A stretch of DNA of 50,486 nucleotides, the filler included, from Jimgerdemannia flammicorona (taxonomy: Eukaryota), in NCBI GenBank assembly GCA_003990765.1. It is 2 parts of 2 records of this genome, joined end to end, with 100 filler letters (N's around TTAATTAATTAA, not from the genome) between each part and the next. Parts side by side here need not be neighbours in the genome. Positions count along the whole stretch, not along the records: positions 25,297 to 50,486 come from RBNJ01000869.1; 1 more part is not named here. One strand, written 5' to 3'. This document shows positions 10,146 to 48,953 of this stretch, in pieces; the first letter of the stretch is position 1; every line of letters starts with the position of its first letter. The translations under genes were made by a program, and so were the position numbers. The notes under the pieces are model-generated. The model was not told the origin of the DNA. It worked only from the letters and a program-made list of their open reading frames with translations, and searched no databases.

Positions 10146-10460
10146 ATGATAGACAGTGGTGCCTCAGGCAACTTCATCAATGAAGAAACAGCCAACAGAC
10201 TCAAGGTCTTCCCCTCTCCAGTACAGCAAACTCAAGTGGTTGCCACAGCTGATGGAACCTCACATGTTATTAGCAAAGAAGTCCGCAATCTACCCTTCCG
10301 AATTGACAACTACCGAGTACATGTTACCCTCCAAATCGTACTACTCCCTGACAATGAAATCATCCTTGGGACCCCATGGTTAAAACAAGAGAACCCCATG
10401 ATTGATTGGGTAAACCATTCTCTGACCATCAAGAAAGGACGCCACAACTTCAAACTATAA
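10146..10460 (+). pseudogene. Retropepsin aspartic protease of the Gypsy element
   Basis: MIDSGASGNFI active-site motif and IILGTPWL...NPMIDW motif; one frameshift just upstream. Confidence 0.93.
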
Positions 10461-10659
10461 GGCAAAAAGGACTCACTCAACTCTAGTAACCCTGGACCAA
10501 AGATCACCCACATCAACAAGCTACAACTCAAGAAATTGGCCAAGAAATGCCCTCTCTTCGCCATCTCCATCCGACCATCCAAAGAAGAACCCGAGAACTC
10601 TGAAGAAGACTTTTCCAAAGTTGACAGCCATGTCAGACCACTACTCCAGAAGGTCCAAG

Positions 10660-10750
10660 ACACATTTCCAAACCGAACCACAGAACCACCTGCACCTGTC
10701 ATTATTAATGACCAAGAAGAATACAAGGTTGAACAAATCCTCAACAAATA
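10660..10750 (+). pseudogene. Integrase C-terminal tail and chromodomain start remnant
   Basis: FPNRTTEPPAPVIINDQEEYKVEQILN resembles the chromoviral 'PPPP...EEYEVEKIL' segment; it is truncated after ILN. Confidence 0.75.
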
Positions 10751-10825
10751 TAGCCACAAGAACCATCCAAATGGTATAACAACACCAGAACAAATTAGAA
10801 GGCCCTGACGAGGACGTCGAAAGCT

Positions 10826-10838
10826 AAGAAGGGGAGAG
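10826..10838 (+). promoter_or_regulatory. Polypurine tract
   Basis: AAGAAGGGGAGAG immediately before the 3' LTR TG. Confidence 0.85.
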
Positions 10839-10839
10839 T

Positions 10840-12964
10840 TGTAAGTGCACAACCTCCAAGCCACCAGAATCGCATGGCATCCTCAGAACTAATTCGGAAA
10901 CCACATGCGAGACTACAAAACAAGAGATCATCTGGTTACACGAAATACACCAGCAAGCATGAGAACCCACTGCCAAGATACAAGAATACTAGAAGAAGTA
11001 CTATAACCATAAGACTGACTCTGAACTACTATAGCTAGTTTAGTGTACCATACTATTACAAAAGAAACCGAAAGTACCAAACTCAAATCAAGACAAGAAG
11101 AACCCTATCTCATCCATCAAAAGGTTCACAAACTGCACTTATCAACTCAAGACCCAGTTATACCATGACTATACAAGACCTCATTACTTAGCAGAAGCAA
11201 AATGCATTTGAACAACTCTGTTCACTTTATCTGTGTCACCTCCATTAGAGAGTGATGGACACTTCATCTGAACTCAAGAAAGCCAACAATGTTGAAACCA
11301 ATCTCAAGCCATCCATGTGACAGATATTACTACTAGAAATTGTCTTGGATTACAGAAAATATCATTTCTGAGAGGTTCAAACCCCCAGCCGCGACATTGG
11401 GAGCCCTTGCCCTAGACGAGAATGGCCAGTCCTCGCAAATATGCCAGCAGACCAAAAAAAAAGAGAACCAAGACCTGTTATCCTTGTACAACTACCACCA
11501 CCAAGGACAGTCTTAATCTTACAAGAGATAGAAGTAACGACATCTTGAAAACTGATGATGTCAGAAGTCAGAAAACAGCTCAGACTTTGCCAGTGATGAT
11601 GTCATCAATAGTGATGTCATCAAAGACTAACCAGACAGTGCCTAAATCTATAAATAGCTTAGCAGTCATAGTATAGTTAGATTAGCATTGTATGACGTAA
11701 CTGTGAACTGACTCAGCAGTCAGATGATCTCTTAATATTAGTGCTCTGAACGAGTCAATCCGGATGGGATTTGGATGGATTCGAATTGGATTCGAATTGG
11801 ATTCGAATCAACCATTGTTTTGATTTCCAAATTAGACAATTAAATGTTTACATCAATAACTTGATGAATAATCATCCAAATTTGATGATCTTGGTGTCAT
11901 TTGAAAGCCCTTAATAAGGCCTTTCTAATGATACCAAGAACATTAAAATCAGATTACGTGTTGCCGAGATATTAAGGAAAACGTTCCATTTGACGAAATT
12001 TCCAAAATCGGCAAATCAAAGAATTTCCAAAATCGGCGATTCAGACATTTTCCTTCATAACTCAGCAACGCATAATCCGATTTCAATGTTCTTAGTATCA
12101 TTAGATAGGCTTTATTAAGGGCTTTCAAATGACACCAAGATCATCAAATTTGGATGATTATTCATCAAATTATTGATGTAAACATTTAATTGTCTAATTT
12201 GGAAATCAAAACAATGGTTGATTCGAATCCGATTCGAATCCGATTCGAATCCGATTCGAATCCATCCGGATGGGATTCGAATCCCATCCGAGTTGATCTG
12301 GATGGGATTCAATCCAAATCAATCCGAATCCAATCCAGATTAAATTGACTCGTTAGGAGCACTACTTAATATGTCAGATCACACTTGTACTACATGACTG
12401 CATTCTGACTCAGCAAGGCACTTAGTGCTACATCCATATCTAGCATAGTCCAGATAGCCCCTCACTAGTATAAATACCCCCTCCCCCAGACCTCAGAATC
12501 TCAGACTTAAACAGACTCGAACACACAAGAACATTTCTGAATACTTCCCCACAATACCCCTTCACACAAATACTCCTAGTATAGTAATATCATGAATAGC
12601 AAATAAACCTATTCCATAACCCACAAACCACTCTTAAGTAAATCTGCCCCCTGTTAGGTCCCATTCCTAACCCCGTCACGAAATTTCCTAATTGGGTATT
12701 GTCTGCAGCGATATGCCAATTCAACTAAGCTGGTCTTAGTTTCTTGAACTTCCTGAAATATGGAAAACCCTGAACATCCAGAACTAGTCTGGAAAAGGAC
12801 TTTGGTTGAGACATCAACCCGATCTTGAAATCAATAAGCATAGAGGACGTACTCCATATGAAATTGATCTTGACCATAAGAAATGGTCTTCCAGAACATC
12901 CAGAATATCCAGAAAACCTTTCCAGAACTACGTAATGGTTACCCTAAAAAGTAACCCTCTTACA
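10840..12964 (+). repeat. 3' LTR, interrupted by a MITE
   Basis: Copy of 5958-7449; the differences are mostly C>T and G>A transitions. Confidence 0.95.
11739..12364. mobile_element. hAT-type fold-back MITE (626 bp)
   Basis: TIRs TAGTGCTCTGAACGAGTCAAT / ATTGACTCGTTAGGAGCACTA; perfect 8-bp TSD CTTAATAT (11731-11738 and 12365-12372); absent from the 5' LTR; internal inverted arms of more than 200 bp. Confidence 0.93.
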
Positions 12965-12989
12965 ATATCTTTATCCTTAGAGAAAGAGT

Positions 12990-13199
12990 TATTCCAGAGA
13001 AAAGAGTTTTCCTTCTAAGGAGCTAGGTGAATCCAGCATAATAAATATATTAAATTTGAACTTGATTTTGTTAAGTTATTAAATTTTAAAGTTTGTCTCT
13101 AAATTTTGAATCAAATTGAACCTCAATTCAATTTGATTTAATTCCAATGACCCCCAATTCAATTCAATTGGAATTGATTCAATTTGTTTACGAGCACTA
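12990..13199 (-). mobile_element. Single end of a related hAT-type MITE
   Basis: Ends in TTTGTTTACGAGCACTA. The reverse complement resembles 25469-25590 (tagtgctc..aacaaatt...aatttgattcaaaatt...taataacttaac). No partner end found. Confidence 0.65.
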
Positions 13200-13460
13200 G
13201 GCTGGACAGTTCAGGTGATGTATATTATCAGATAGCATGATTGGGCAATTTGTGTAGAGAGTAAAGAAAATATAACAGCCAATGGCTCAGTAGAAATATG
13301 TGTGATCAGAATTCAGAAAGTCAGAATACAGGGGTCTAATACATGTATGTAAACAAGAAGTATAAACTATTTCTGAATGATCAATATGAACTTCAATATA
13401 ATCTCTGAAAATGCAAAGACTGAACTATTCTCAAGATATAAATACATATATCAGTATTAA

Positions 13461-15076
13461 TTATATATAAAGTAATTGCAATACAACCTCTATTGCCCTA
13501 ACATATATATCTATTCTCCAAAGATCAGATACTGCCAATGGATCTATCTCTGTTTGTAGCTGCATTTTTATTTCATCAGAAAGGCCAATGTCCTGAGAAG
13601 GCTCCTTTTCTTTAGATTCACCACCTATGCCAACTGGACCATCCCAATCAATTCCAAAATCCTCATGTATTCCTCCAAATATATCAAAAATATACTGGTC
13701 ATCTTCTCTTGCATCAAATCGATTCTGTTGCTCAGCATTAGATATGCCCAGAATGAACAACTGCCGTGGGGTTCTATTATTCTCCATTGTAATAGGATGT
13801 CGATTCCAACCCTCTATAAATAATTGGAGGACAGCTCAAATTTGGGGAATATATATAAAGTAAAGACACCACATATGAACTGGATTGTCAATATCTAAGA
13901 ATCCCTGATGCTCAAGTTCATAAAAAATCTTAAAATAGCAATAGATTTAAAGTTAGAAAATATATTAAATAATATTATTTAAATATATATATATAATCTT
14001 ACCTCATAAAATATTCTCAATACACAACTCCATACATCTCACCAAAGTTGTTCAATTCATTGATTATGTGTAGATTTTCCAGCAATAAAACTGCCATGGC
14101 CAATTCCTCTTATTCGCAACATAAACTTACAGACAGCATAATTTTCACCTCCCTTATCACCTTGAACTCGACTAGGACAACTCCAAGATTGGATTCCTTG
14201 TAAAAATGCTTCCATCATTGTTTCTTTCTGATTATTATTGTTTAACATAAGAAATGTTATTGCCTGAGTCATGCTATCAATACTGCCATATACAACCATC
14301 TTCCATCTATCCAATCCATGATATCCATCAATATGCCAGAGAGAGTTTGGTTGCTCAACCCAATAGACTTTTTGCTGAATACTCTCAGCCCATCGTATAG
14401 AGACAACAATAGGATCAATCACTTGTAAGGCTCTTCAAATTCGATGTCGACGAATATGTATTCCTTGGCTTCACAATACTCCAGTTAGTGTTCACTCTCC
14501 ACTATAAGCATCTGTTGTCTGCTTAAGATGCCTTATCATATTCTCCAGATCAGTATCAGAAATATCTGTCCATTGTCTACAGATTCCATAATCACGTAAT
14601 CATCTCTTGATAGTTGATTCTGAGATACCAAAGAGTCGAGCAATATCAGAATTTTTTAGACACTCTTCTACATTGGCAATAAGAATCTCCTTGCTGATAA
14701 GATAGTCTGGACGTCCACCTTGTCCAGTCCAAATAACTTGTGGTTGAATAGGTAATAATGCAACTTCATCTGCATCAACATGAGTATGGATTCTAAGAAG
14801 CAGTAAATGGGCTAAGTCAAGATTGCTCTGGATCCATAGATCAGGCAATAGAGTTGCAAGGCAATTGAGATTATTTGCAAGCTGATCCAATTGAAGAAGG
14901 TGGAGGTCAAATTCAGAATGATTGCCATTATTTCGCAAGTTCAATACATTTTGAGCATCTTGTATAATTTGGGAAGCTGTATGAAAGAAGTTCTGTATTT
15001 GATCCAGTTTGTGTGGTATGCACAGCTTACTTGGCTTATATGGTTTATATGGCTTATGTAGTTTGTGTTTGCTCAC
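13461..15076 (-). pseudogene. rve/IS3-like DDE integrase-core transposase pseudogene (IS3EU-like), one intron
   Basis: HTH IARLFGISESTIKR; core PNSLWHIDGYH...YGSID...PSRVQGDKGGEN...GKSTHNQ*IEQLW (D, D, E); intron at about 13929-14002; C-terminal GWNRHPITMENNRTPRQLF. Arg>TGA stops. Confidence 0.88.
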
Positions 15077-15179
15077 AGCTTACTCAGCTTGCACAGCTTG
15101 CACAGTTTGCATAGTTTGCACACCTTGTATGGCTTGTATGACTTGTATTGCTTGTGGATGATACAGGTTATATAGCTTA

Positions 15180-23995: not shown

Positions 23996-24793
23996 TGTAA
24001 GAGGGTTACTTTTTAGGGTGACCATTACGTAGCTCTGGAAGGGTTTTCTGGAAGTTCTGGATATTCTGGAAGACCGTTTTCTTATGGTCAAGATCAATTT
24101 CATATGGAGTACATCCTCTACGCTTATTGATTTCAAGATTGGGTTGATGTCTCAACCAAAGTCCTTTTCCGGACTAGTTCTGGATGTTCAGGATTTTCCG
24201 TATTTTAGGAAGTTTAAGAAACTAAGACCAGCTTAGTTGAATCGGTGTATCGCTGCAGACAATACCCAATTAGGAAATTTCGTGACGGGGTTAGGAGTAG
24301 GACCTAACAGAGAGCGGATTTACTTAAGAGTGGTTTGTGGGTTATGGAATAGGTTTATTTGCTATTCATGTTATTGCTATACTAGGAGTATTTGTGTGAA
24401 GGGGTATTGTGGGGAAGTATTCAGGAATGTTCTTGTCTGTTTGAGTCTGAGATTCTGAGGTCTGGGGGAGGGGGTATTTATACTAGTGAGGGGCTATCTG
24501 GGCTATGCTAAATATGGATGTAGCACTAAGTGCCTTGCTGAGTCGGAATGCAGTCACGTAGTACAAGTGTGATCTGACATGTTAAGAGATCGTCTGACTG
24601 CTGAGTCAGTTCACAGTCATGTCATACAAGGCTAATCTATCTATACTATGACTGCTAGACTATTTATAGGTTTAGGCACTATCTGGGTAGTCTTCAATGA
24701 CATCACCATCGATTGCATCATCTCTGGTGAAGTAGTCATCTAGGAAGAGTGGTTCACGGATTATTTCTCCTTGTTGGCTGAGGTAGTAATACA
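23996..24793 (-). repeat. Solo LTR, short (about 800 bp) variant of the 5958 family
   Basis: 23996 to about 24710 is the reverse complement of about 6730-7449. A different 85-nt segment follows, ending in TAATACA (TG on the minus strand). Flanks AGAAG and TTGGC do not match. Confidence 0.85.
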
Positions 24794-25196
24794 TTGGCGT
24801 ACAATTCACGTTATACAAAACTTCAAGCAACAGTTCTTGACACAACTAGGAGTAAAGGTACTAGCAATATGTCTTCAAGCAAGAGTTCCGACGGGTGTAC
24901 TGGGTCAGGGGGAGCTGGGGCTTTCGGCTGGCAGCAAGTGGGGAGGGGTTATGGCCTGGGGATGGGGGCCTTTGGAGGGTCGAATGGTGGTGAGGGCTCG
25001 CGAGGTGGACTGGCGACAGGTGGTGTTGGCGGAAAGGCTGGTCCCTCGAGCTTTGCTGACAAGGTGAAGGGGAGTGGATGGCCAGCTGGAGACAGGGCTG
25101 GTGCTACTGTGGGGAAGGGCAAGGTGAGCCTTGGGAGGGGAGGAGGTCCCCAGGCTGGGGGTGCAAGCATAGGGGCTGGAGGTGCAGTGGCTGGGG
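24794..25196 (+). mobile_element. 5' end of another copy of the LINE family, cut by the gap
   Basis: CTGSGGAGAFGWQQVGRGYGLG...SFADKVK matches CTGQGGPSAFDWQQVGRGLGLG...SFVEMVK of ORF1 at 20961. Confidence 0.85.
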
Positions 25197-25296
25197 NNNN
25201 NNNNNNNNNNNNNNNNNNNNNNNNNNNNNNNNNNNNNNNNTTAATTAATTAANNNNNNNNNNNNNNNNNNNNNNNNNNNNNNNNNNNNNNNNNNNN
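25197..25296. other. Artificial assembly spacer
   Basis: 44 N + TTAATTAATTAA (stops in all six frames) + 44 N = 100 bases. Confidence 0.97.
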
Positions 25297-27285: not shown

Positions 27286-29059
27286 AGTATATCTATATAT
27301 CAAATCTAGCAGTACTAGGACTGAATCTCTAAACTCTAAGCAAAAGCTTAAGGTAAAATAAAAACCCTCCAATCAGCTAATAAGTAATAAGGACTAATAT
27401 GCAATCCCCCCTTCCCCCCCTCTAAAAAAAAAAAGGACTGATATATAGACTAGGGCTATAAAGACCCCAATATCACTCTCTGAGTCTGTGGACCTCAATT
27501 ATATTACTATATCAGCTCTTAGTTCTAGTCAGATACTATCTTAAAGATAAGGTCTCACTCTCTAAGTCTGTGGGCCTTGATCAAATTATTATATTAACTT
27601 CCAGTTTCAGTTGGATATAGTCCTACCCACTGCTAATCAATCAAAAGGTCCCACCAAATTAGCACCCACTACACCCTGATAGCTGGCATCAGTCTGATAC
27701 CACTATCTGAAAAACAGTCACTTATATCAGAACTTTATTTGCCAGAAAGCTTGCCAAAGCTTAGAGGGCCCCACTATAAGCACTGATAACCTGTAGGTTT
27801 TCTATACTGGTACTTGATGTCTATAGTCAGTCAACTCTCTATGCAGTCCATGACATACTGAGATGATAACTTATTGATGATGATAAAAGAAAGAAGATGA
27901 TAGATATATCCCAGATATAGCTGGAGGTATTAGAAACTGTGAAAAGTGAAAGAAACACTAATCTGATACTGAAAGAGAGGCAACTTATCACCATTGCCTT
28001 CCTCCCACTATCCTGCAATAGGTACAACAAACCATACTAAGGTAGAAAAGTTGTGAGTAGAGAAAAGGAGACTTGGCTGATTGCCTGCCAGACCTTGTGA
28101 CCAGTATGAAAGGAGCTGTTCAAAGATGTTCTTTATATATTATCCATATGATATAATCATTATCATTGACCTTCTCTATTGTGTGCTTAGAGCATAAATG
28201 AGTAATTCCCTCTTCAATAATACATATATAAAGCTCGCGTATATCTTGAAATTTGTGCAAGCAAAGACTAGCGATCGCAATGAGTAGATTCATGTGTGAG
28301 CCCCTTTGGAAAGTAATAACAGTTGGGAAAGCGGCCATCACGCATCCTAATTATGGACCCCACAATGCTCCCACCCCCACACTCTGACTCCTACCCACCT
28401 CATTTGAACTGACATAATCATACTATGCATCAACTCTTCGGTTCCATTGTTCATAGGTCGAAGCCCAACAGTACAGCAAGCATAATAAAAAGCACAGAAT
28501 TTTATGTTGAGTGGAATGTTATGTTCGTTATGTTCCTGCTCATTTGGTTTCGCCACAAATCCCTCCCCCCCTTCGCTGCGTGGAAGGCCAACCGATCATC
28601 GTCATTTAAATTTCCCACCCTCTTTAAGAAAGCCCTTCTCCAAAATCGCCTTCAAAGATGACCGCTGGGAGGTCCGCCTCATGACCGTGAACATGATCTC
28701 GCGCATTATAGGCTTTCACAAGCTCCCTCTGCTGGGCTTCTACCTTCCTGATGAAATACCTACAACCGCACCAGCGCGAGCCTCTGCTCAAGATAATCGC
28801 GAACAACTTTGTGAGCGAGCATTGCGTGAGCGAAGTCATTCATGGCTACTGGGGATGTTTCAGAAACGTCACATGACAGGTGGCCACATGACATCCCCTC
28901 CCTGAACACTCTCTACAATGACAAACCGCCGAAATCGCTCTGTGAATATCCCTTAGAATATTGAAGTGGTTGGGTCTTCGCATCTTGGGAAGTATTCAGG
29001 AAATATTTTGCTGTGGTTTGGTCTTGGAGTCAAAATATTTTGCGGTGACTAGAAGCCAC

Positions 29060-32465: not shown

Positions 32466-34029
32466 GTTTTTTTTTTTTTTTTTTTTTTTTTTATAGACCG
32501 TGACATTTTATTTAATAAGACTCATAGTAGGTAGAGGCATCCGAAAAAGGGCATCCGAAAAGGGCACCTAAAAAGGTTTTTCTGTCACACTAGCAAATCA
32601 CCCCAATGCAACACAAGATCACGTAACCGTCGCACAACCGATAGACAGAAGGCTCAGCCTGAAACCGGGAACTTACGCCAAGCGGTGCTAGAAAATCTTG
32701 TCTGGTGAATCTCCCCGTCCACCACCCCATTTCTGCCACCATCGTCTGCCGAATTCAACAAACCAATGTACTCCCAAAATGATCCGTAGAGATGTGTGTG
32801 GAGGTAAATAGATACGAGCTTGTGGATATACTGATTGCTACGCCACTTCGCCACCCATGTGAAATGTGATTCCCTGTTTTAAGGTTAGACGATCGAAGGT
32901 CTTTCAATCGAAGAGTCTTTCGAGCGAAGGGCCTTTCCTTTGAACATCTCAACCTTTCTCGCCTGATTTTCAACCAAATCATTTGACGCCCCTCCAGAAA
33001 AATGCTACATTAACGGCTTCTCTCTCAAACTGCGATGTCTATCCAAAGCCGGCAGACGTTTGTATAACAGTCAGTACGTTTTGAAGCTGGGTTATGTAAT
33101 AGGCGTTGAACGAGGTCAAAATTGATATCTATTGTAAGTTTGGTGATCAATGACGCGTCGTGAAGATCGATGGTGGCTTCGTGAAGATCAATGGTGGATC
33201 GTCACCGATATGGTAAAGAGCGGCGCTGCAGAATGAACTCGTCACACCTATGTAGTCGTCCTATAATTAGGGACTCTATAATTAGTGCATACAATCTGTA
33301 AACGTCAGTAAACTTTGAAAGCATAGAACACAACGGAAAAAAGAAAAAGAAAAAGTATTAATAGAAATGCTTATTGGTTGATTTACTACAACTCTAGGAA
33401 TTTAAATTTTTGATATATATAATTTTATTATGCAAAACCTCCAGACACAAATCCTAAAAAGAATAACTGTATAATTTTATAATACTGTGTTGAGAATTTT
33501 TGATGCGAAATAACGGCCTTGTCTAACGGCCACTAAAAACTGCGCATCAGTTTGACCGACATTTAGTTGCCTCTGACTTCGTCGATAACGGGCACAGCAC
33601 GAAATGGCGGGATTCCAAAACTCAGAACGTTAGGCACACGCAAATTAGTCTGGAACGATTTTCTCTGTTACCAAAACTAATCTGCACTGTAGCGACCTAT
33701 CCGCTCTTCTTGGTGGCCATCGTGAAGTGTTTCCAGCAGGTTATATAGTTTGGCAATCAATGGCATCGTGGTCCAGATGATGAAACCTTCGACACGCACG
33801 GACAAACACATTGAAGATATGCTATATTTCACATTGCTACGCTATAACGCTAAAAACCGGATTTAAATTATCTTAACATTATCTTCCTCCTTGGCCTACA
33901 ACCCCTATGGATTGTTGCCTTTGGTCAGTGGTATCATTCTAGGTTCAATACAAAATGAAAACATTCTCATGGAAATTTTACAACGAGGCGGAGTAAGGAA
34001 TTCAAATGCCATAGGACCGTAGGACCAAG

Positions 34030-35190
34030 GCCACGAACATCCATGCACTGTTTACATCATTCACTTTAACACCACCACGATAGGCACCCAAAATCTCGAT
34101 GTTGAAGTTTGCTAGCTCACTGCTCTTGGCATTTAAAGAAATTACGCCAATGGCCACGGTATTTTTTCCCTTGTGTTTGATAATGCCTTGAGGGACCGGG
34201 AAGACGGTCTGGGGGCCGAGCGCATTAGCTGTGGAAGGAAGGAAAATGAAAGGGTCACTTCTCTTTTTCTTTCGGGACAACTCGTATATCAAATATATTA
34301 GAGAATAACTTACCTTATTTGCCAAATTAACATAAAAGATGAGGTGAGCAACAAGAGAGAAATCATGTTTTCTCCCGATTTAACTTGTCCGTTGGAGAAA
34401 GTAAACGTGGCATTCGCAGAAGAGGACGATGCCGGAATTGGGATGCCACCAAAGTTATTCTCCGTTCAACCAAGCAAGATACCCAGATCCACTACCACCT
34501 TGACTTAGCAATTCAAGACCGGTAATTGCTGAATTTGCCACGGAACCAGATACTTCCGGTATGGTAGCCATAATCATCAGCGTAGAGAACGGGCAAAGTT
34601 GCCGGTTGCGTGGGGTTATTCGTAGTCGAATGTTTGGCAACAGTCCAGTTGCTGTCGTCAAAGTTGGGTCGGTTTCGGGAGACGCCCAGTTGAACTTCCA
34701 TTTCGCCAGGGCCAGCAAGGATTCCGACCAGTGTACCGTACAGAGTCGTTTGAACGGAGATCTTCTTGCCATTCCATGTAACGGTTTTCACAGTCTCGTG
34801 TGTCACAATCTCGATAGTCGTAGTAGCATTGGTGTCGCTACGCAAAGCCATGGAGGTTCCTTCCAATGAGGCACCACGCACCAGATAAGGACCATAAACG
34901 AGCACGGTCTGGTTGTCGTTCACCTTGAGCGCCCAGAACTGGATGGCGTCATTATAACCGGTGAGATAGAGTAAAAGATCAGGCTCCGCAGCACCAGTAA
35001 TAACCACTGGCGTGATGTTCTGATGTTTATAGTTGAGTCTCAAGTTTGTGCCATTGACGCCTGTAATCACGGGGTTGTTGCCAAAAATTTGACGGCAGGT
35101 TTGGCACCCCCTTGACTTTAAGCACGGTCTCGCCATCTTCGCCTTCAAAAACGTAGAGCAAAGCGACATTGCCATTTAGTAGGCCAGAAA
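34030..35190 (-). pseudogene. GH35 beta-galactosidase C-terminal domains, frameshifted and internally deleted
   Basis: VYGPYLVRGASL, FDDSNW...LPVLYADDYGYHTGSIWFRGKF, QGGSGSGYLAWLNG and LGPQTVFPVPQGII motifs are spread across frames. An intron (GTAAGT...CAG, about 34229-34312) is retained. The catalytic barrel is absent. Confidence 0.9.
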
Positions 35191-36706: not shown

Positions 36707-38103
36707 ATGTTTAGCCGGGTGTTCGACATCGTACCCCTCCGCTTCAGAAAGGACGCAAGACTCGAACCGCAATGGTACCGCTACCTGCGTGGATCTACCG
36801 CTATTCTTGCGCTCTTATCCGTTACGATATATTCCTGCATCCTGATCCGTGATTACCAGAGAGGCGACACATACATGGTCCCGAGTCGTATAGACAGAGA
36901 GCATGACCCAACATATAATGGCTCCGTTTTAATACCAGGTATGTGGTAATGTGGCTCCATTGTTCATCATTCTTCACGACGATACTGAGACTTTCTCTTC
37001 ATTATGACAGGATTGTTCATGGTTCAGTTCAACGGATACGGTCCCATGCAGAATATCACAAGTGTTTGTGCTTTGATGTACCCACCATCCAACGAGAACT
37101 TGACGCTGAACGCTCAATACAAATATTTCTGCAACGGTGTCCTGAAGAGTACACGAGAAGATATTCTCGGAATTCCCACATTCTACTATGAAACACTTCC
37201 CTCGAACCCTCTCTATCTCTCCGATACAAGCTGCGCGTATCCGTCCTCTCAGATGCCGTGCCCAGGCCTGACTATGTTTATGGCAATGTTTTATCCCACA
37301 AACGCAACCGAGGAATCTTTCATAAACTTTGCGATTGTTGATGGGGGATACAAACCCTACACAAGCGATGACAATTCTTTAACTTATTATGCAAGCAACA
37401 ATATGCACACAGCTTGGGCGGTGCGGCCCGGCGAAGGACTTCAACTCCGATTGCAGTACACCTTATACTATCCCATACAGGGCGATCCCTATTACGAATA
37501 CACTCAGCAAACAACAACCATTCCTATTGCCACGAATGGGAGTGCAATCGCGTTCGAGGCCGACACAGTATACATTAACGTTAACGTGGAACGATATGCC
37601 CTATCGCTTGGAACTGTTATTGGTCTTATCGGTGGTCTTTACAGCGTTGTCGCGTCAGTATTTGCAAACATATTTGGAATGAAGGTCATGACACCTTGGT
37701 AATATGCAATTGCTGTCACCGCATGTTAATCTACCATTTTAATGCACTGAAGCTGTATTTTGTGTTGTTTCAACTTCTTTAAATCAGTTCTAATATTCAT
37801 ACCGCATTCTAACCATGTACATACAGGGGTATCCTTCCGAAGTATGTTCCATTCGTTCGCAGACATCTCAAACCTTTGCTGGAAGAACAATGTAACACAC
37901 CGGACGTCTTGGAGAAGACTGAGGTGCCGTTGCCTGGCGACATCGCACATATTGGCCACCACGACCACGGACAAGAGATCGAAAGCTTGAGGAGTGAGAC
38001 AAATTATCTTCGAGCGCGCCTGAGAAACCTGGAGCGGGTGCTAGAACAATTTTATCTTGACAAGGGACTTTTGGAACATCTTGCATCCGACAGGATGGCC
38101 TAA
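36707..38103 (+). CDS. Two-TM membrane protein with a large Cys-containing ectodomain (channel-like family), copy A, 398 aa
   Basis: Exons 36707-36938, 37011-37698 and 37827-38103 splice in frame. TM1 STAILALLSVTIYSCILI; TM2 region LGTVIGLIGGLYSVVASVFANIFG; PWG; tail LRARLRNLERVLEQFYLD. An alternative in-frame ATG lies at 36668. Confidence 0.88.
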
Positions 38104-39091
38104 TTTCTTAGATTAATATCATGTAGAAACTGACGGGCATAAGCTTGACGTGATCATCTTAATACTTGTAATTGTTTCCAATTAAATTTTTTATTTTAAG
38201 GCTTAATGTAAAAACCACTTACGTCCCGATTTTTTCTACTGTGCACCTAGCTTTACTAGTGGCTGCATCCGGCATATTATTCGCTTTGTAGCCATTCACT
38301 AAGTAGATAGTACTCTCTAATTAATACTACATAAGTATTTAGAAATAGTAGCTATTCTATTATTATCTTATGATACAGATTATCGACCCTGTCGCCCATT
38401 AACCCACGCCCATCCTTGCTCAGCTCAAGGGACTTGTCAGTTGACACAGATAGAGGTATGGATAAGTGATATTTTATGTGACCTTCGGGAGTGTCTGCTA
38501 GTAAGTTGAACCCCAATGCATTAAAGGGGTTACGATTTTAAATATTCACAAACGATTCGCAAAAACTGTAAAATGGACTCTAAATATATGTCCACACATC
38601 TTGGCACCGGTCTATTTATATAAACACTGCCTTGCCCACCCTTTGCGCTCAAAATGTATATATATGGAAGACGCCAATTTATCAATACCAGTTTTGACCC
38701 CCCTTGCGCGCGGTTGTGAGTTTCACGTATTTTGGGAGTGGTGGAAATTTTTTTGGGCGCCATCTACACGCTTGACTTCAAATTTAGTGCCGTAACTGAT
38801 TCAACGCAATCGGACCAGGCCGCCCTGGACAGAGAAATTTCGATTACCTCTTTACCAAAAATAATAATGTTTCTTATAAACTTTTCTGGTATCAACCATA
38901 TATATATAATAAAATAAATAATTATTAACTAATAATTCTAGAAGTCGTAACTTCTAACCAGTGACAGATGTCCACTGGCAATAACTTTGTCATCTTACCC
39001 TCCAATAAAACCATCGTTCTCGACACCGCCCTATGGTCTTGGCTGACAAACTACACTCCACCCATCTAGCCTACGTCCTCAGCCCCATAAT

Positions 39092-39180
39092 CGGCCCCGC
39101 CCTCGGCCCTGCCCTCGGACCCGCCCTCGGCCCCGCCCTCGGACCCGCCCTCGGCCCCGCCCTCAGACCCGCCCTCAACC
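39092..39180. repeat. 12-bp GC-rich tandem repeat
   Basis: About 7 copies of ggccccgccctc. Confidence 0.9.
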
Positions 39181-40461
39181 CCGAACAACTCCACACTCCT
39201 GCCCACCTCAGATTTCTATCGGAGTTATCGCCTTCACCACTTTTACAATTGCAATAATATTTTGGCAGATGCGAGACCTTCTTCGCCACTTTTACGATTG
39301 CAATTATTATTTGGTGGAGGCGAGACTTCGACAGTCGCACCTGGCTTCCTGATGGACACAATAGCAGTGACCAGGACCAACACAGGATGGAGGTACACCA
39401 GCCAAGCCCTTTTCGGTTACACCGTCAAAGCTGGTCAAGCCTTTTAATCTGATAAGCGACGACGGCGGACGATGCCCGTTGTTGAAGGCCGATGAAACGG
39501 GACCGGAAACTCCGGCCGCTGGATCCGAAGACATAGTTGAGCCAGAGATGGGGCCATCAAGCCCGCAAGATTTAGGGGTGGATTTAGGGGTAAAATAGTG
39601 ATAAACGGGTGGCCGTGGAAAATACGATTTACGACTCAAACCTGGTCTTAATTTATTACATTGTGAGTGACACCATGGTGGCAGTTTATTGAGGCTTGTA
39701 TATACATAATATTAAAGGGTCCTGAAGTTGCGCAGCCAAACGTCATTCGCCTTCCTGGTATTGACGATTAGTCTCCACTCTGCATGAAGGACATGAATTT
39801 CGAATGTCGTTAATATCACTTTGGCTAAATCTTTGGACCAAAACAAGAGACTCACGAATATCACAAAATAGTTGCCCATCCGTGTGCTTCGCCTTTGACT
39901 TGTCCTATATTTCCTAGTGATGCTATTTAGTTTTGTCTTACACATTTATCGTCACTCGATCGCCGGACCTTTGATGGTGCTCGAAAATCTTAATAGGTAA
40001 GTCTTGCTTCACTATGACCCAAACCACCTCGTATATAGTCCAAGTTCTACCGATATGGTCAGTAATCAATGGAATCATATGCCACATTTACAGCTCCTAC
40101 TAATTAAAGCTAAGGGTGTCGTCGGGGTAGAGGGCATCACCTACCCTCCCATCGGAGGCTGATTCTGTCCTAGTAATTAGGTGATGACGATCTGTAAACA
40201 TTGGGTGGAATACTCATGATCGAAAAACCTCAATCAACAGCGACGCTAATTGTGTAGTAATTGTCCTCTATTCTAGCACCTGTGAGGGAGGGAGGGATTT
40301 TTCAATTTGTCAAACGGTTTGAATCTTTTCTCCAGAAAGTCAGACTGAATATGAACACGGAACAGAGATTTAATGGGCAAGTGCAACAAAAATTAAGGTA
40401 GAGGTTATGGCTTGCATGCTAGAGCTAGATAGAGCACGACCCGTGTTTTGAACTAAACGGC

Positions 40462-40685
40462 AGAAGTGGGGTCGCAAAAACTGTGAAAAACATATCTCAG
40501 GAAGCAAAAAGAAGGAGGCCCAAAGGTCAGGCGTAGACAACAAAAGCGGGGTTGCAAAAACTGTGAAAAACATATCTCAGGAAGCAAAAAGAAGGAGGCC
40601 CAAAGGTCAGGCGTAGACAATAAAAGCGGGGTTGCAAAAACAGTGAAAAACATATCCCAGGAACTGAAAAGAAGAAGGCCCAAAA
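40462..40685. repeat. 80-bp tandem repeat, about 2.8 copies
   Basis: c(t/a)gtgaaaaacatatc recurs at 40481, 40561 and 40641. Confidence 0.92.
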
Positions 40686-40961
40686 GACCAGATTTATAAA
40701 CTTCAAAGTGCAGAAATCGTTGGAGGCCGCCACCATTGTTGGGCATCCACTTCGTTGATGATTTTGTGCGTTGCCGTTTCAAACATGTCGCCCCAATTGT
40801 ATGAGAAAGCATCAAAAGCTTCATTACCACATATGTATATATATATATACGTAAAAGGAAGCACCATCGCGGGTGGGGATAGCGATGTCTAATGATGCAA
40901 AAAAAAAAAAACACCCATGTCTATTCGCGAGTACATAAGCACTTTCATCGAGCTTCGGTAA

Positions 40962-42424
40962 TTATGCTCCTTTTTCTACAATCGACCCTGTCTCCATTTC
41001 ATGTTGTTTCTTGGCTATTTTGCCTCCAGCTATCGAATCCAACAATCCCTTATCAATCACGTAATTGGATAGAAACCTTTCGAGTTTCTCCAACCGTGTC
41101 CCAAGGATAATAAAATCCTCGGCAGGATCAGCCGCAGCGGACGTAGGAATCGGATCAGCAAGCGGAGTGCCGCTCTTATCAATGCTATTGGGCGGATTGA
41201 AGCCGTCGTTTAGCGGACCGGAGAGTATCGATTTGAAAACATTCTTCTGAAAAATACCCCTACCAAGAAGCAAAGATGTATCGAGTTAGTTCCATAATGA
41301 CAAGTAGTGTATTACAAGAATGAGGGGAGAAGAGTTACCATGGGGAAAGCCTAGTAGTGCCAAATAAAATAATGAATACAGAAGCGATGCCACCGTAGAG
41401 ACCGCCGATGAGACCAAATAATTTACCCCACGAATGGATATAATACTCATGGTTGACCTTGTAGTAATCTGTGCTGGCCGACATAGAGACAAACATTCTT
41501 AATGCATCCGCGCCAGTGTACCCCGACGGTTGGGTGATATATGTCTGAGTGGTGGTATAGTACACGCGGCCTGCGACATCGTGGTTCTCTTCATAGTCAA
41601 GTGTGATACTGAGTAGTTCTCCAGGACGTACAGTGTATTTGGTAGATAAAACGGGTTGGTCAGTCATATAACCTTTCCCATCGGGAGCAACTGGCAGATT
41701 TTCGTTGTTGACGACTACTGTAAGGGTTGTATACGATGGAAATGTGACGTTGGGTGGGAGCGAAAAATTGATTGTGAAAATGAAAAAGCCCTGGCACTGG
41801 TATGGTAGAGGGTCGGGTAGTTCGTTGCAAGTATAATAGTCCGAGAAATAGAGGGGCGTCAAGTTAAAGTAATCGTATGTGATCATTTGAGTTTCCGAGT
41901 TCACAGTTTGGCGCAGAACTCCAGTGCAATAGGGAGTTCCAGTCAAGTTTATGTTGTTGTCCCTGGTTACATGTTGGATCCCACAACCCACTCGGATGTA
42001 AGGCGATATCCATTCGGACAGATTTGCCGTATGACGCGCAGTAAAAATCTCTGTCGCATTTGAGAAAAATTAGTCTCCATAGTGCCAGCGGATACAACTA
42101 TCATAAACTCAAAAAAAAAAAAAAAAAAGACTTACGAGGAAATGGGAAATAGGGATAATAATTTGGTGAGTCGCGTCCGACCTGAGTTGATACAATGTAG
42201 GTTTCCCCCCTGAAAGCACAAGTTTCAGCCGCTGATGAAATCAGAGTTTAAAAATGCATTTTCTTGCGACGGCTTACATACCGATTTATATCCAAGATCA
42301 GAAACACCAAATAGACGAGAAGGCCAACGAAACCACAAATGGCTGTAGACATCCGCAGGAGTACAAACCAGCTCGGTTCATAGCGTTTGGTTGTGCGAAA
42401 GAAAGAGAATACCTCAGAGAACAT
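40962..42424 (-). CDS. Channel-like two-TM family, copy B (4 exons)
   Basis: ATG at 42424 (MFSEVFSFFR..RYEPSWF); three GT-AG introns at the same positions as in C and D; the reading frame is intact through WGKLFGLIGGLYGG...SPW/GIFQK...LEKLERFLSNYVID. Confidence 0.88.
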
Positions 42425-43880
42425 TATGAATAGTGATTACTATTATACAGAAGCAAAATCTACGTGCCAATGACGCGCCTTTAAATAGGAGATGCCCTCT
42501 GGAAGGAGTTGTGAGTTTAAAGGTGTCGCGAAGTCATGTCCCACGCCTATGGCGCCCATTTCGTTTCACACGTTTCTCTTTTCTTTTTTCATCCGGTGTT
42601 CTCACCTCACCCTTGGTCTAGGGCAGTGATCTGAGTACAAATTCCAAATAGGAGAGTAACACAGATTGTATATATAAAAATAGAATCATTCCGGAAAAAT
42701 ACGGGAACGAAGGGCCACACTTTGTGGTCCGTATGTCGGAAAAACGAGGGTTTATGTCCAAAATCTCGGTTACGAATCGAATTTCTTAAATTCAAATGAC
42801 ATATTTAATCTTGCTAAGCCATTTACTAAAGGTCTTTACTGCAAACAAAAACGAGATTCCGGTCTTTGATATTCTGCTTTTATTGTATGCGAAACGTTTT
42901 TAGAATGTCGCTCAACCTTTTTATTCTGACGACGGGATCTTCGTAAATTTTGTTAATAGATATTTGGTCAGTGCATGTGCAACACGCAGTGGTGTTTTGT
43001 GCATAAAGCTACCAACTAAGGGATAAAGAGCATGATGGGACTCCTTAGGAAGAGTTCCGAAGTCCTCACGATCGGTAATGGTAAACTCCTTTACTACACC
43101 GTGAAAGTCACAAAATTGGTATTATATAATTGTTTAAACAGGTGGGCATATCCGAAGAAGGCTGCAACTAAGAAAACTTGCCGATGTTGTAGATGACCCA
43201 CGAGGATAAAACATTGCCTGTGGATGACTCCTGCCATGTCGTGTGGGCCGGTTCCTCAAAATGTGTTTCCGCTTAGGTGAGCAGGCCTCCCCCGAAATGG
43301 GCTTACCCGTTGCGGTCCGTGACTGGCCGGTCCTGCTTACCTAAGCTTAAACCATTTTGACACATCCACAGGCACAGGCGATGTTTTATCCACGTGCATC
43401 GGTACGTTCTCTTAGTCGGCAGCTTTGTGTGGTCACGTAATTATCTATTCTAAAGAAACGTGACAAACTTTACTGCGATTTCCACAAAACTGAACGTAAC
43501 GCAAACGCCACCAAACACCATCTTGTACCACAAACAAATTTATCTTTTGAAGAGAGGCAGAAAGTGTGGTCTAGATATCGTTTCTGGAATCAATCTGTTT
43601 TTCGTACACTCTGTGTTACTCTCCTATCTGGAATGTATACTCAGATCACTGATATGATAGGTCAGACTGCGAAAGACCAAGAGTATGGTGAGAACACCAG
43701 ATGAAAAGAGAAATGAGAAACGTGTGAAACGAGATGAGGCCCCGTGGGCGTGGGACGCGACTTCGCAAGGTCGTTTTGACACCTTTAAACGCGTAACTCA
43801 TTCCAGAGGGCATCTCCTATTAAAGCCGCGTCATTGACACGTAGATTTTTGCTTCTGTATACCCCTAATCACTATTCATA

Positions 43881-45318
43881 ATGTTCTCTGAGGTATTCTC
43901 TTTCTTTCGCAAAACCACACGCTATGAACCAAGCTGGTTTGTACTCCTGCGGAGGGCTACAGTCATTTGTGGTTTCGTTGGCATTCTCGTCTATTTGGTG
44001 TTTCTGATCTTAGATGTGACAAGGTATGAGAATCGTCGCATGAAAATGCATTTTTGAACTATGATTTCATCAACATTTAATAATTGCGGCTGACACTTGT
44101 GCCTTCAGGGGGGAAACCTACATTGTATCAACTCGGATCCAACGCAACACAACAGATTACTTTCCCATTTTCTCTTTCCCTCGTAAGTCGTTTTTTGGGT
44201 TAATGATACGTTGTATCCGCTGGCACCATGGAGGCTAATATTTCCTCAAATTTGACAGAGCTTTTCACTGCGTGGTATTCGAAAAGTCTGTCCGAATGGC
44301 GACCGCCTTACATCGAAACGGATTGTGAGATCCAACATTTAACCAGGGACAAGAACATAAACATAACCAAAGTTCCCCATTGCACTGGAGTTCTGGATGG
44401 AAGTGTGGACCTGGAAACTCAAATAATAGTCTACAATTATTATACCCTACCGCCCCTCTATTTTTCAGACTATATTACCTGCAACGAACTACCTGACCCT
44501 TTACCATTTTATTGCACCGGATTCAGTGTTTTCACAATCGACTTTTCGCCCCCACCAAACGTCACAATGCAACCATATACAATCCTTAGATTAGTAGTCG
44601 ACAATGAAAACCCGCGATATAAATCCGGTGAGGTTTATTTTCCCAACAAAACCAGTCCCAGCACCGGTTACGCCGTACGTCCTGGAGAGATACTCTATAT
44701 CACGATTGAATATGCAGTTAACGTGGATATCGCAGGCCGCGCGTACTATACCAACACTCAGACATATATCACCCAACCGTTGGGGTTGAACGAATCAAGA
44801 ATTCTTGTCTCTTTTTCTGCTCGAACCGATTCCTATATGGTAAATCAGGAGCACTATATCCACTCGTGGATTGAATTATTTGGTCTCATCGGCGGTCTCT
44901 ACGGTGGCGTCGCCTCTGTATTCATTATTTTATTTGGTTCTGCTAGGCTTTCACCATGGTAATCCTTCTTTCTTCTCCATTCTTGTAATACACTACCTTG
45001 TCATTACCTATCTAACTCGATACATCTTTGCTTCTTTGTAGGGGTATTATCCGGAAGTATGTTTTCAAATCGAAGCTCTCCGGCCCGCTAAACGACGGCT
45101 TCAATCCACCCAATAGTAACCATAAGAGCGGCACTCCGCTTGCTGATCCGATTCTTATGTCCGCTGAGGCTGATCCTGCTGAGAATGCTATTATCCTTAG
45201 GACGCGGTTGGAGAAACTCGAAAGGTTTCTATCCAATTATGTGATTGATAGGGGATTGTTAGATTCGATAGTCAAGGGCAACGTAGCCAAGAAACATGAA
45301 CATGAAATGGAGGCTTGA
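43881..45318 (+). CDS. Channel-like two-TM family, copy C (4 exons)
   Basis: MFSEVFSFFRKTTRYEPSWFVLLRRATVICGFVGILVYLVFLILDVTR / GETYIVST...FP / QLFTAWY...SPW / GIIRK...MEA. The splice phases are consistent. Confidence 0.9.
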
Positions 45319-46692
45319 TTGTAGAAAAAGCAGTCTAAATTACCGAGGCTCGCCGTATAGCACTTATGTACTTGCAAACATTTTATTTATTTGTTTGTTT
45401 TATTAATTAATAGCTAAGGGGTCGTATATATATGTGTCGTGGTTATATTTTGCGTCATTGGACATGCACACTCGCTGCGAAGGTGCTTCAATATATAACT
45501 TCTTCTAAATTATTCAAACTGACTTATCCATTGCACGCGGGTCAGAAAACTCACCGAAAAACCGAAGGTAAACGAATAGATGAATTTTAAACGATATCTA
45601 CTGTATATCAGAAATCAGTGTGCGGCTATTTGTCCTGCGACTCTGGGCGTTCATACATATAACCGTCACGACAGAATGTGACTTCCAGACGTCCCGTGTA
45701 AATTAATTTATATACAAAAAGTGATCCAGTCGTTGGAGAGAGGCCTGCCTGCTCACCTAAGCGAACACATTTTGAGGAACCGGCCCACCCGACATGGCAG
45801 GAGTCATCCACAGGTGATGTTGTATCGGTACGTTCTCTTAATTGCCTTCTTCGGATATGCCTCTCTTTTAAACGAGTGTTGAATTGCCCAAAAGAAGCGC
45901 AGTTAACATGAGTTTAATGCCACCGATCGTGAGGACTTCCTAGAGTTTCATCATGCCTTTTACCCCTTAGTCAGCAGCTTTGTGCACAAAACACGGCTGC
46001 ATGCTACGTATGCGCTGATTACATAATTATCTATTAAACAAACGAAGATCCCAAGATATCCAATTATATTCCGTCATCAGAATGAAAAAGGAGATCAAAA
46101 AGAAACGTGGCGAAAACTGAACGTAACGCAACACCATCTTGTCCGACAAGAAAATTTCCCTTTTGAAATGAAACATCTCTGGTTCGTTCGCATACCATCA
46201 AACAAAGCAGGATGTCAAAAACCGGAATTCTCGTTTTGTATGCTTTTTTTTTTTTTGTAATACATTATTACAGCATACCTGAGGTAAAGACCTTATTAAA
46301 TGTCTTAGCAAAATTAAATATGTCACTCAGATTTAAGGAATTCGTTTTGTAGCTGAGATTTTCTCGTTTTGCCGACGTACTGACCAGAATGTGTGGCCTA
46401 GACTTTGATCTTCGTTCCGCGTATCCTTTCTGAAACCATTCCGTTTTTTGTGCACTGTGTTACTCTTTTATCTGGAATTTAAACTCGGATCACTGATATG
46501 GTAGGGCAGACTGCAGAAGACCAAGACGAGGATGAGAACAACGGATGAAAAGATAAAAGAAAAACGTGTGAAACGAGATGAGGCCCCGTGGGCGTGGGAC
46601 ACGACTTCACGTGATGGCTTCGACACCTTTAAATCCGCAAAATTGGCACGTAATTAGATTTTGCTTCCGTATACCCCTAATCACTATTCATA

Positions 46693-48111
46693 ATGTTCTC
46701 TAAGGTATTCTCTTTCTTTGGCAAAACCACACGCTATGAACCGAGATGGTTTGTACTCCTGCGGAGGGCTACAGTCATTTGTGGTTTCGTTGGCATTCTC
46801 GTCTATTTGGTGTTTCTGATCTTAGATGTGACTAGGTATGAGAATCGTCGCATGAAAATGCATTTTTGAACTATGATTTCATCAGCATTTAATAATTGTG
46901 GCTGACACTTGTGCCTTCAGGGGGGAAACCTACATTGTATCAACTCGAGTCCGACGCAACACAACAGATTACCATCCCTCTTTCCCTTTCCCTAGTAAGT
47001 CTGTTTTGGGTTAATGATACATTGTATCTGCTGGCACTATGGAGGCTAATATTTTCTCAAATGTGACAGAGAGTATTGGTGCGTGGTATTCGCCAGATCT
47101 GTCCGCATGGGAGCCGCCTTACATCCAAGCGGGTTGTGAGATCCAACATGTAACCAGGGACAACAAAGTAAACTCAACCAGCTTTCCCTATTGCGAAGGA
47201 GTTCTGGCGGGAAACGTAGACCTGGAAGAATCAATGATGCGCTACAGTTATTATATCCTGCCGTCCCTCTTTTTCTCGGACTCTATTACCTGCAACGAAC
47301 TACCCGACCCTCTACCAATCTATTGCACCGGATTCAGTGTTTTCACAATCGACTTTTCGCCCCCACCAAACGTCACTATGCAACCACAAACAAGCCTTAG
47401 ATTATTAGTCGACAATAAATCCCCGCGATATAAAACCGATAAGATTTATTTTCCTATAAAAACCGACCCATTACCCGGTTACGCCGTAAGTCCTGGAGAG
47501 ATACTCGATATCACGATTGATTATGCATTGAACATGGATGTCGCAGGCGGCGCGTACTATACCAACACTCAGACATATATCACCCGACCGTCGGAGTTCA
47601 ACGATTCAAGAGCTTTTGTCATGTTTTCAGCCCGCACAGATTACTATATGGTAAACCAGGAGCGCTATATCCACTCGTGGGGTGAATTATTTGGTCTCAT
47701 CGGCGGTCTCTACGGTGGTGTCGCCTCTGTATTCATTATTTTATTTGGTACCGCTAAGCTTTCACCATGGTAACTCTTCTCTCTTCTCCATGTTTGTAAT
47801 ATAATACCTTGGCATTACTTATCTAACTCGATACATCTTTGCTTCTTGGCAGGGGTATTTTCCAGAAGAATATTTTCAAATCGATGCTCTCCGGCCCGCT
47901 AAACGACGGGTTCAATCCGCCCAATAGCATTGATACGAGCGGCACTCCGCTTGCTGATCCAATTCCTATATCCCCTGAGGCTGATCCTGCCGAGGATGTT
48001 ATTATCCTTAGGGCACGTTTGGAGAAACTCGAAAGGTTTCTATCCAATTACGTGATTGATAGAGGGTTATTAAATTCGATAGTCGTGGGGCAAAGTAGCC
48101 AAGAAACATGA
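46693..48111 (+). CDS. Channel-like two-TM family, copy D (4 exons)
   Basis: Same exon structure as C. The frame is intact apart from a +1 shift in the last few codons that changes the tail. Confidence 0.88.
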
Positions 48112-48953
48112 TCACGAAATGGAGACGGGGTCGATTGCAGAAAAAGGTTTCTAAATTACCGAAGCTCGACGTATATCACCTATGTAGACATAAGCTTTTT
48201 TTTTTTGTTAATTACTGACTGGGGCTAGTCTATATAATTATGTATGTGGGATATTTTCGTTTAATTAGACGTGCACACTCCCTGTCCGGGTGCTTCAATA
48301 TATTTAATTTCCTCAATCGACTTATCCAAATCCACGTGGGTAAGCAAACTCTAACAAAATCAAATAAAACCTAAGGTAAGCGAATAATAATGATAATTTC
48401 TGTACATCGGAATTCAGTGTGCGGCTATTTGTCCGGCACGGCTTAGGAGTCCTATAATGCACTCTGCTCGGCGTTCGCAAGTGGCTCTTGGATATTGCAA
48501 TGGATGCCAAAATCACAAAAAAATGTTGCACTTATTTTTTCATTCCTCTATTCTCCACTTGCATTATATTTTCCGTTAGCCGTACCTCATTTCAGGGCAG
48601 AGAGGGGCCCCATCCAACCTATCGCATCCTCGTCTCCTCCCACCAAATGCTCGCCATCCTCTCTGTCGCCACCATCCAAGGTACACCCTACTCTTCCGCG
48701 CACATGCTTGCCCGTCGTCTGTCTGCAAACCATTTCCATATTACGATCGCCGGAACTCGTGCTCCCATGCACTATTGTGTTTGGTTATCCATCATGACCA
48801 AGTTGCGATTACATCGTTCACTCATCTCTAAAGTGTATATTAATTTATTTTCGAAACATGGGCTCAGCGATAAATATTAGGTACTAGCGAATATGCAGTT
48901 ACAGTTCTAGGCGTACACTTTAACACACTTCAGTTATCATATTTAGACGTATC

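Follow-up and report, generated by a model that had tools for sequence, protein, structure and literature searches.

A stretch of 50,486 nucleotides, filler included, from the early-diverging soil fungus Jimgerdemannia flammicorona (Endogonales; GenBank assembly GCA_003990765.1; the whole stretch is referred to as the window) carries, between positions 36707 and 48111, four intact, paralogous, intron-bearing genes, called g1 to g4 here. They were delimited from stop-to-stop frames and the underlying DNA and checked by translation. Their products are predicted to be two-pass membrane proteins with a beta-sandwich ectodomain, and their modelled fold points to the ion channels of the PAC and DEG/ENaC families. 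The cluster had been proposed in an earlier reading made without database searches (the sequence-only reading), and its bounds proved exact: 36707 is the ATG of g1 and 48111 the final base of the g4 stop codon, and the spliced reading frames between them are intact.

The gene cluster and its products

The exons of the four genes are as follows, in the order of transcription:

36707-36938, 37011-37698, 37827-38103, plus strand: g1, three exons, 398 amino acids
42282-42424, 42136-42209, 41339-42050, 40962-41259, minus strand: g2, four exons, 408 amino acids, spanning 40962..42424
43881-44023, 44109-44182, 44259-44958, 45042-45318, plus strand: g3, four exons, 397 amino acids
46693-46835, 46921-46994, 47070-47769, 47853-48111, plus strand: g4, four exons, 391 amino acids

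All introns have GT..AG borders, and the last intron of each gene divides the Trp codon of a conserved PWG motif. Genes g2 and g3 are arranged head-to-head, g3 and g4 in tandem. Pairwise protein identity is 65-75% among g2-g4 and 32-34% between g1 and these three, g1 being the most divergent copy. All four arose within one gene family by tandem and inverted duplication, in line with the local expansion that the sequence-only reading had supposed, and no fifth copy was found in the window, where a tblastn search with the four proteins returned only their own loci.

All 398 residues of the g1 model agree with those of the database protein P0008. For g2-g4, the two small 5′ exons are supported because the N-terminal 75 residues of g3, encoded by exons 1-2, match the start of P0007, a full-length protein from Endogone, without a gap (37/75 identical); over its full length g3 is 45% identical to P0007, in an alignment that covers exons 1-2. 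Three public J. flammicorona models, all on one 7.9-kb contig, are 98-99% identical to g2-g4 (g2 residues 128-408 match P0005 in 278 of 281 positions, 98.9%; g3 residues 176-397 match P0004 at 98.6%). These models, P0003-P0005, were compared with 41339-42424, 43881-44958 and 46693-47769 and begin at an internal Met; since such starts skip the two small 5′ exons, the public models lack the first transmembrane helix (TM1) and the motif that precedes it. The g4 protein stops early (…GQSSQET), without the last residues of g2, g3 and P0002, because the frame shifts near the end: residues 385-396 of the g3 tail match 48089-48124 in a different frame, with 83% identity.

Hydropathy peaks twice along every protein, around residues 26-48 and 279-300 (more narrowly, 26-29 and 279-283), corresponding to TM1 and the second transmembrane helix (TM2), and both termini are probably cytosolic. 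The positions of the principal motifs are:

g1, plus strand: RLEPQW, 36758-36775; GLIGGLY, 37622-37642; PWG, 37694..37830 across the last intron; RLRNLERVL, 38017-38043
g2, minus strand: RYEPSW, 42385-42368; GLIGGLY, 41415-41395; RLEKLERFL, 41096-41070
g3, plus strand: RYEPSW, 43920-43937; GLIGGLY, 44882-44902; RLEKLERFL, 45205-45231
g4, plus strand: RYEPRW, 46732-46749; GLIGGLY, 47693-47713; RLEKLERFL, 48016-48042

The motif R-x-E-P-x-W stands before TM1 in all four proteins, TM2 opens with GLIGGLY in all four, and PWG follows, then a helical tail containing RLxxLExxL. The ectodomain contains four conserved Cys (residues 97, 118, 152 and 161 in g1; 95, 114, 147 and 158 in g2-g4) and all of the N-x-S/T sites, five per protein, and aromatic residues make up 13-14% of each sequence. 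The sequence-only reading had described most of this correctly, namely the R.EP.W motif of the N-terminus, the two-helix topology (also seen as helices in the models below), the Cys, the glycosylation-type sites, the richness in aromatic residues, and PWG with a coiled-coil-like tail. Two of its details needed adjustment: the ectodomain has about 225 rather than 240 residues, and the pattern V.QE.Y..SW.ELFGLIGGLYG.VAS is exact in g3 and g4 and nearly so in g2, while g1 follows it only from GLIGGLY onwards.

Non-coding sequence upstream of g2, g3 and g4 is likewise duplicated (42425-43880, 45400-46692), with similar spurious frames, for example …SRFTRFSF.FSSGVL…, at 42489-42634, 43624-43816 and 46468-46653; since these upstream regions are shared, the duplications took in the promoters. 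Two repeats lie between the genes. At 39050-39215, between g1 and g2, a short tandem repeat encodes GPAL, PRPR and PPSA peptides in different frames and resembles simple sequence; at 40453-40920, downstream of g2, the unit …FLQPRFCCLRLTFGPPSFCFLRYVFHSFC… recurs in overlapping frames, pointing to tandemly repeated DNA of about 90-100 bases.

The wider family in Mucoromycota

The family comprises at least 212 proteins, the number returned at E values of 1e-3 or lower (12 at 1e-10 or lower, and 7 at 1e-30 or lower) when 1.84 billion cluster representatives were searched exhaustively with a HMMER profile. Most of the 150 matches listed cover only profile positions ~160-315, i.e., the last ectodomain strands, TM2, PWG and the tail helix. 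In a word-indexed protein search, 6 of 237 candidates had E ≤ 0.001, all of them “hypothetical proteins” of J. flammicorona or Endogone sp. Named members belong to the Endogonales, to Gigaspora and to many genera of the Mortierellaceae (32 hits in the Mortierellaceae search), and the neighbouring clusters in the ESM Atlas are all labelled as commonest in Mucoromycota and have no Pfam family in common. Judged by these protein searches, on which the taxonomic range rests, the family is, as far as sampled, specific to Mucoromycota, where it occurs in Endogonales, Glomeromycotina and Mortierellomycotina.

An alignment of 148 sequences contains ten invariant or near-invariant columns (in g1 numbering G285, G286, F299, G300, P306, W307, G308, L375, E376 and L379), which correspond to the GG at the start of TM2, the FG at its end, PWG, and the L/E/L of the tail. 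The loose pattern PWG, PFG or PWY is present in 143 of 153 family proteins, and many full-length members have [RK]-x-E-P near residue 12. Some relatives carry further domains. P0110 and P0114 carry Kelch propellers, and P0110 runs, in order, through a signal peptide, the Kelch region, an extra transmembrane helix, R-x-G-E-P-x-W, TM1, the ectodomain, TM2, PWG and the tail. In the Atlas, 193 “galactose oxidase” proteins of this Kelch kind, about 1000 amino acids long, form a cluster that is commonest in Mucoromycota.

Pfam returned no family for the exons in the window, nor for the core module of 40 family members (E ≤ 0.01). The family is invisible to routine annotation because it has no Pfam annotation and because TM1 is missing from the public models for three of the four genes.

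Predicted fold, sequence signal and their interpretation

AlphaFold2 (AF2) was run with the family alignment on g1 and on P0007, which is 44-48% identical to g2-g4. The g1 model (mean predicted local distance difference test score, pLDDT, 77.9; predicted template-modelling score 0.69) consists of a helix at residues 22-52, a strand at 55-63, a strand-rich ectodomain, a strand at 254-273 and a helix at 277-299, and the P0007 model (pLDDT 80.4) has the same layout. In both, the long TM1 helix runs directly into the first ectodomain strand and the long final strand directly into TM2, after which the chain turns briefly at PWG and continues in two or three cytosolic helices. As modelled, this continuity between strands and membrane helices is the “palm” arrangement of the PAC/TMEM206 and DEG/ENaC channels.

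When the models were compared with the PDB using Foldseek, g1 gave 94 matches at E ≤ 0.001, of which ranks 1-19 are PAC/ASOR/TMEM206 structures (E 1.8e-11 to 5e-9; template-modelling score, TM-score, by target 0.39-0.53), and ASIC starts at rank 20 (E 1e-8). P0007 gave 95 matches at the same threshold, with PAC/ASOR again at ranks 1-19 (E 8e-10 to 1.4e-7), followed by BRTNaC1 and ASIC at 2e-7 and weaker. Taking both models together, the PAC matches have TM-scores by target of 0.38-0.54, and ASIC1, ASIC2, ASIC5 and BRTNaC1 form a second tier (E 1e-8 to 1e-5; TM-score to ASIC 0.32-0.45). All of the matches listed (the top 50 ranks) are PAC or DEG/ENaC, one of them labelled merely “a membrane protein”, and a TMEM206 cluster is also listed for the ESM Atlas models of P0008 and P0013 (TM-score 0.43-0.50). 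P2X receptors, which have two transmembrane helices and a trimeric channel architecture, are absent from the top 50 ranks of both models and from the PDB sequence matches given below. Thus, of the three channel types against which the sequence-only reading had wished the fold to be compared, PAC came first and ASIC next, and P2X did not appear among the matches listed. A fold without a palm-like sheet, or a match to an unrelated family, had been named there as evidence to the contrary; palm-type strands were modelled, and the matches were to PAC and DEG/ENaC. A homotrimer prediction with three copies of g1 residues 16-335, which used no alignment and had no controls, scored 0.24 (mark 0.32), a value that speaks neither for nor against a trimer.

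The best sequence matches, to DEG/ENaC chains, fall on the pre-TM2/TM2 segment to which the sequence-only reading had drawn attention. A profile of 141 members searched against 177,635 PDB sequences gave nine matches at E ≤ 10. The top six are BRTNaC1 (three entries; 9e-4, 1.8e-3 and 4.1e-3), ASIC5 (two; 4.1e-3 and 6.6e-3) and PDPNaC1 (0.038), the seventh is PAC (E 0.2, over profile positions 24-245), and the remaining two are unrelated and coiled-coil-like. In the best match the family consensus “llgliGGlyGl” is aligned on “LLSDIGGVLGL” of BRTNaC1 (E 9e-4), and it is likewise aligned on the matching segment of ASIC5, suggesting, at marginal significance, that the family possesses an entry segment into TM2 of the LLxDxGGxxGL type. 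A Pfam scan of the 141 members at E ≤ 10 found ASC (PF00858, the amiloride-sensitive sodium channel family) most often, in 7 of 141, followed by Gal4_dimer in 4. The seven ASC matches range from 11.2 to 19.0 bits (best E 7.8e-4); six lie at profile positions 368-448 of 455, i.e., pre-TM2/TM2, and the seventh at 22-124, and all are collinear with the TM2 or TM1 region of the member concerned. A sub-profile of the Glomeromycotina type (A5) had five PDB matches, three of them to PAC (E 0.26-0.9) at TM1 and the next strand. Marginal by itself, the sequence evidence nevertheless indicates the same two families as the structure search.

The reading favored here, with a probability of roughly 55%, is that g1-g4 come from a previously undescribed branch of the palm-fold superfamily of PAC and DEG/ENaC, one belonging to Mucoromycota, and most likely act as trimeric gated channels. 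The three subunits would be grouped about a central axis, and the pore would be lined by TM2, which is rich in Gly and strongly conserved (GxxGGxxG...LFG). The fast-evolving ectodomain would respond to some cue from outside the cell or from a lumen (pH, a small ligand or membrane tension, for example) and would pull on the connection between the final strand and TM2, thereby gating ion flow, while the family-specific PWG turn and the LxxRxxxLExxLxEYxxD helical tail may aid oligomerisation or coupling to cytosolic partners.

Several results weigh against this reading. The overall structural likeness is moderate (TM-score 0.29-0.54, root-mean-square deviation 7-16 Å, identity 6-13%), the g1 model has weak zones at residues ~81-130 and 191-210 (pLDDT 53-69), and AF2 may be biased towards known folds. 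None of the 141 members reaches the curated Pfam cut-off, the best ASC match being 19.0 bits against 23.6. Neither ASC nor TMEM206 was matched by g1-g4 (main exons in the window at E ≤ 1; P0008 at E ≤ 0.01), P0007 matched no Pfam family whatsoever at E ≤ 10, and no TMEM206 (PF15122) match turned up in 40 members (E ≤ 0.01), nor do the 25 commonest of the 81 families returned for the 141 members at E ≤ 10 include it. The DEG/ENaC and PAC likeness claimed in the sequence-only reading is borne out by the fold and by the pre-TM2/TM2 sequence, but not by a Pfam ASC match above the cut-off or by any match to the TMEM206 profile. Against the PDB, an Endogonales-only profile (A1) found a single unrelated match (E 1.9), a Mortierellaceae profile (A4) found nine, all unrelated and caused by Q-rich tails, and the single protein P0108 found none.

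The remaining contrary results also favor a different view, namely that the proteins share a palm-type fold, by descent or convergence, and act as non-conducting membrane sensors or scaffolds. In this main rival, which is considered rather unlikely, the variable ectodomain would recognise external molecules from the soil, the host plant or other hyphae, and the conserved TM2, PWG and tail would pass on the signal or recruit cytosolic partners. Across the wider family, conservation is highest in TM2 and in the cytosolic tail of PWG and helix, a tail without equivalent in PAC or ASIC, and the ectodomains are barely alignable. The helical tail of about 90 residues with its PWG is absent from PAC, and in the comparison with DEG/ENaC a conserved cytosolic tail is again found only on the fungal side. 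The Kelch propellers and the extra transmembrane helix that precede the module in some relatives, together with the conserved tail, fit a receptor or scaffold as well as they fit a channel. Two channel motifs are missing as well. The ASIC-type G-A-S, which we take to lie at +7 to +9 from the aligned GG, is replaced in g1-g4 by S-V-F; V-A-S stands two residues earlier, at +5 to +7, so that the canonical filter is unmatched, as the sequence-only reading had noted. This V-A-S is not kept family-wide, and the consensus has no conserved small-x-Ser at the place of the filter. DEG/ENaC channels have a His-Gly motif before TM1; the 25-30 residues that precede TM1 in g1-g4 lack HG and carry R-x-E-P-x-W instead.

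Rates of substitution, given here as crude Nei-Gojobori estimates among g2-g4, belong to the same side of the argument. With synonymous divergence (dS) of 0.18-0.33, the ratio of nonsynonymous to synonymous divergence (dN/dS) is 0.62-0.86 overall; it is higher in the ectodomain (0.67-1.15) than in the tail (0.41-0.45); in the TM2 block of 40 codons it is 0.20-0.44 in two of the three pairs and 1.14 in g3/g4. This pattern is compatible with a sensor surface that evolves fast while the membrane and cytosolic core is held under constraint, and the high values could also reflect relaxed constraint. What speaks for conduction is that every solved protein of this fold returned by the searches is an ion channel, that the near-invariant, Gly-rich TM2 resembles the pore-lining helices of DEG/ENaC, and that the DEG/ENaC sequence match falls exactly there; moreover, the ectodomains of DEG/ENaC channels are typically variable too.

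Two other explanations are very improbable. According to one, the proteins are Erv41/Erv46 (ERGIC-type) two-pass cargo receptors that act in the early secretory pathway and carry a beta-sandwich in the lumen, with which they share the topology and a beta-rich middle, and ERGIC_N/COPIIcoated_ERV clusters of the ESM Atlas do match P0008 and P0013; yet these TM-scores (0.38-0.48) are all below 0.5, neither Pfam family was found in 40 members (E ≤ 0.01) or among the 25 commonest weak families of the 141, and no such protein is among the PDB Foldseek matches listed, which are PAC or DEG/ENaC. According to the other, the genes are decaying or non-functional duplicates in a transposon-rich region, as the overall dN/dS, the frame change near the 3′ end of g4 and the transposon remnants (integrase, dUTPase) upstream in the window might suggest; against this, reading frames of about 400 codons and all GT..AG splice sites are kept in 4/4 genes despite the dS given above, dN/dS in TM2 and the tail is 0.20-0.45 in five of six comparisons (the g3/g4 TM2 block being the exception), and orthologues or paralogues are conserved in Endogone, Gigaspora and the Mortierellaceae.

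The rest of the window shows no evident functional link to the cluster. Its recognisable features are:

7646-15079: transposon remnants, with a dUTPase domain at 9427-9858 on the plus strand
13461-13835 and 14057-14434, minus strand: integrase core fragments of a transposon remnant
28489-28905: SDA1-like fragment
34002-35175, minus strand: beta-galactosidase C-terminal region (domain 3 and the second all-beta domain), part of a glycoside hydrolase gene upstream of the cluster

In addition, the region from 20.9 to 25.2 kb contains G+C-skewed, Gly/Ser/Pro-rich open frames on both strands that have no Pfam match, and a run of N lies at about 25205-25250 (15 X in the frame 24782-25252).

Significance and relation to known systems

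DEG/ENaC has been treated as an animal family with a few protist outliers. A channel fold of the PAC/ASIC type has not so far been described in fungi, and the family is unannotated. A large fungal family that has this fold together with a DEG/ENaC-like entry into TM2 would push back or complicate the origin of the channel superfamily, would offer a minimal, PAC-sized scaffold with a DEG/ENaC-like TM2 for structure-function work, and would supply candidate ionotropic sensors in mycorrhizal and soil fungi, where ion signalling is poorly known. A bolder proposal, tentative and short of even odds, is that the family is an unrecognised Mucoromycota-wide lineage, sister to DEG/ENaC and PAC, which expanded as ionotropic sensors responding to pH or to cues from host and soil. 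In that case, trimeric palm-fold channels with two transmembrane helices would predate the animal-fungus split or have crossed between the groups; expansion and diversification of the ectodomain would have taken place in the plant-symbiotic Endogonales and Glomeromycotina and in the soil-dwelling Mortierellaceae; and the fungus-specific coiled-coil tail, with the extracellular Kelch add-ons of some members, would represent new regulatory modules.

A BLAST survey of DEG/ENaC with Fungi among its targets reports no fungal candidates; all of its candidates came from holozoans, one alveolate and one stramenopile, and outside animals it places DEG/ENaC only in a filasterean-related species and in heterokonts (PMC10507113). 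In a search of titles and abstract openings in the openly available literature, no paper turned up that describes a PAC/ASIC-like family of fungi or Y80K_N (PF27811), the “uncharacterised 80 kDa protein N-terminal domain”. The latter appears in structural and feature neighbour clusters of the Atlas (TM-score 0.47-0.57), where 19-53% of the members carry PF27811 and which come from Streptophyta and Ciliophora; as a lead only, these clusters may belong to a wider eukaryotic family of the same fold.

With DEG/ENaC channels, the fungal proteins share the L-x-x-I-G-G-x-x-G-L entry into TM2 and, judging from hydropathy, AF2 and Foldseek, the general plan of two transmembrane helices that flank a large ectodomain and are continuous with its beta strands. 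DEG/ENaC ectodomains measure about 370 amino acids and include Cys-rich thumb and finger subdomains, whereas the fungal ectodomain is about 150 amino acids smaller, has four Cys and lacks both thumb and finger.

PAC/ASOR/TMEM206, the proton-activated chloride channel, which ranks first in structure for both models (E 1.8e-11 for g1, 8e-10 for P0007), is of similar size, with two transmembrane helices and a compact, beta-rich ectodomain of about 220 amino acids that is likewise free of thumb or finger elaborations, and there is weak collinear sequence similarity to it at TM1 and the first strand, and over nearly the full length (E 0.2). Unlike PAC, the fungal proteins have R-x-E-P-x-W before TM1 and GxxGGxxG at the start of TM2, and the ranges differ, PAC occurring in animals (its Atlas cluster is commonest in Chordata) and the fungal family in Mucoromycota. 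The family would be a distant homologue of both PAC and DEG/ENaC channels, probably standing nearest to PAC in size and simplicity of the ectodomain, and nearest to DEG/ENaC in the sequence of the pre-TM2/TM2 region.

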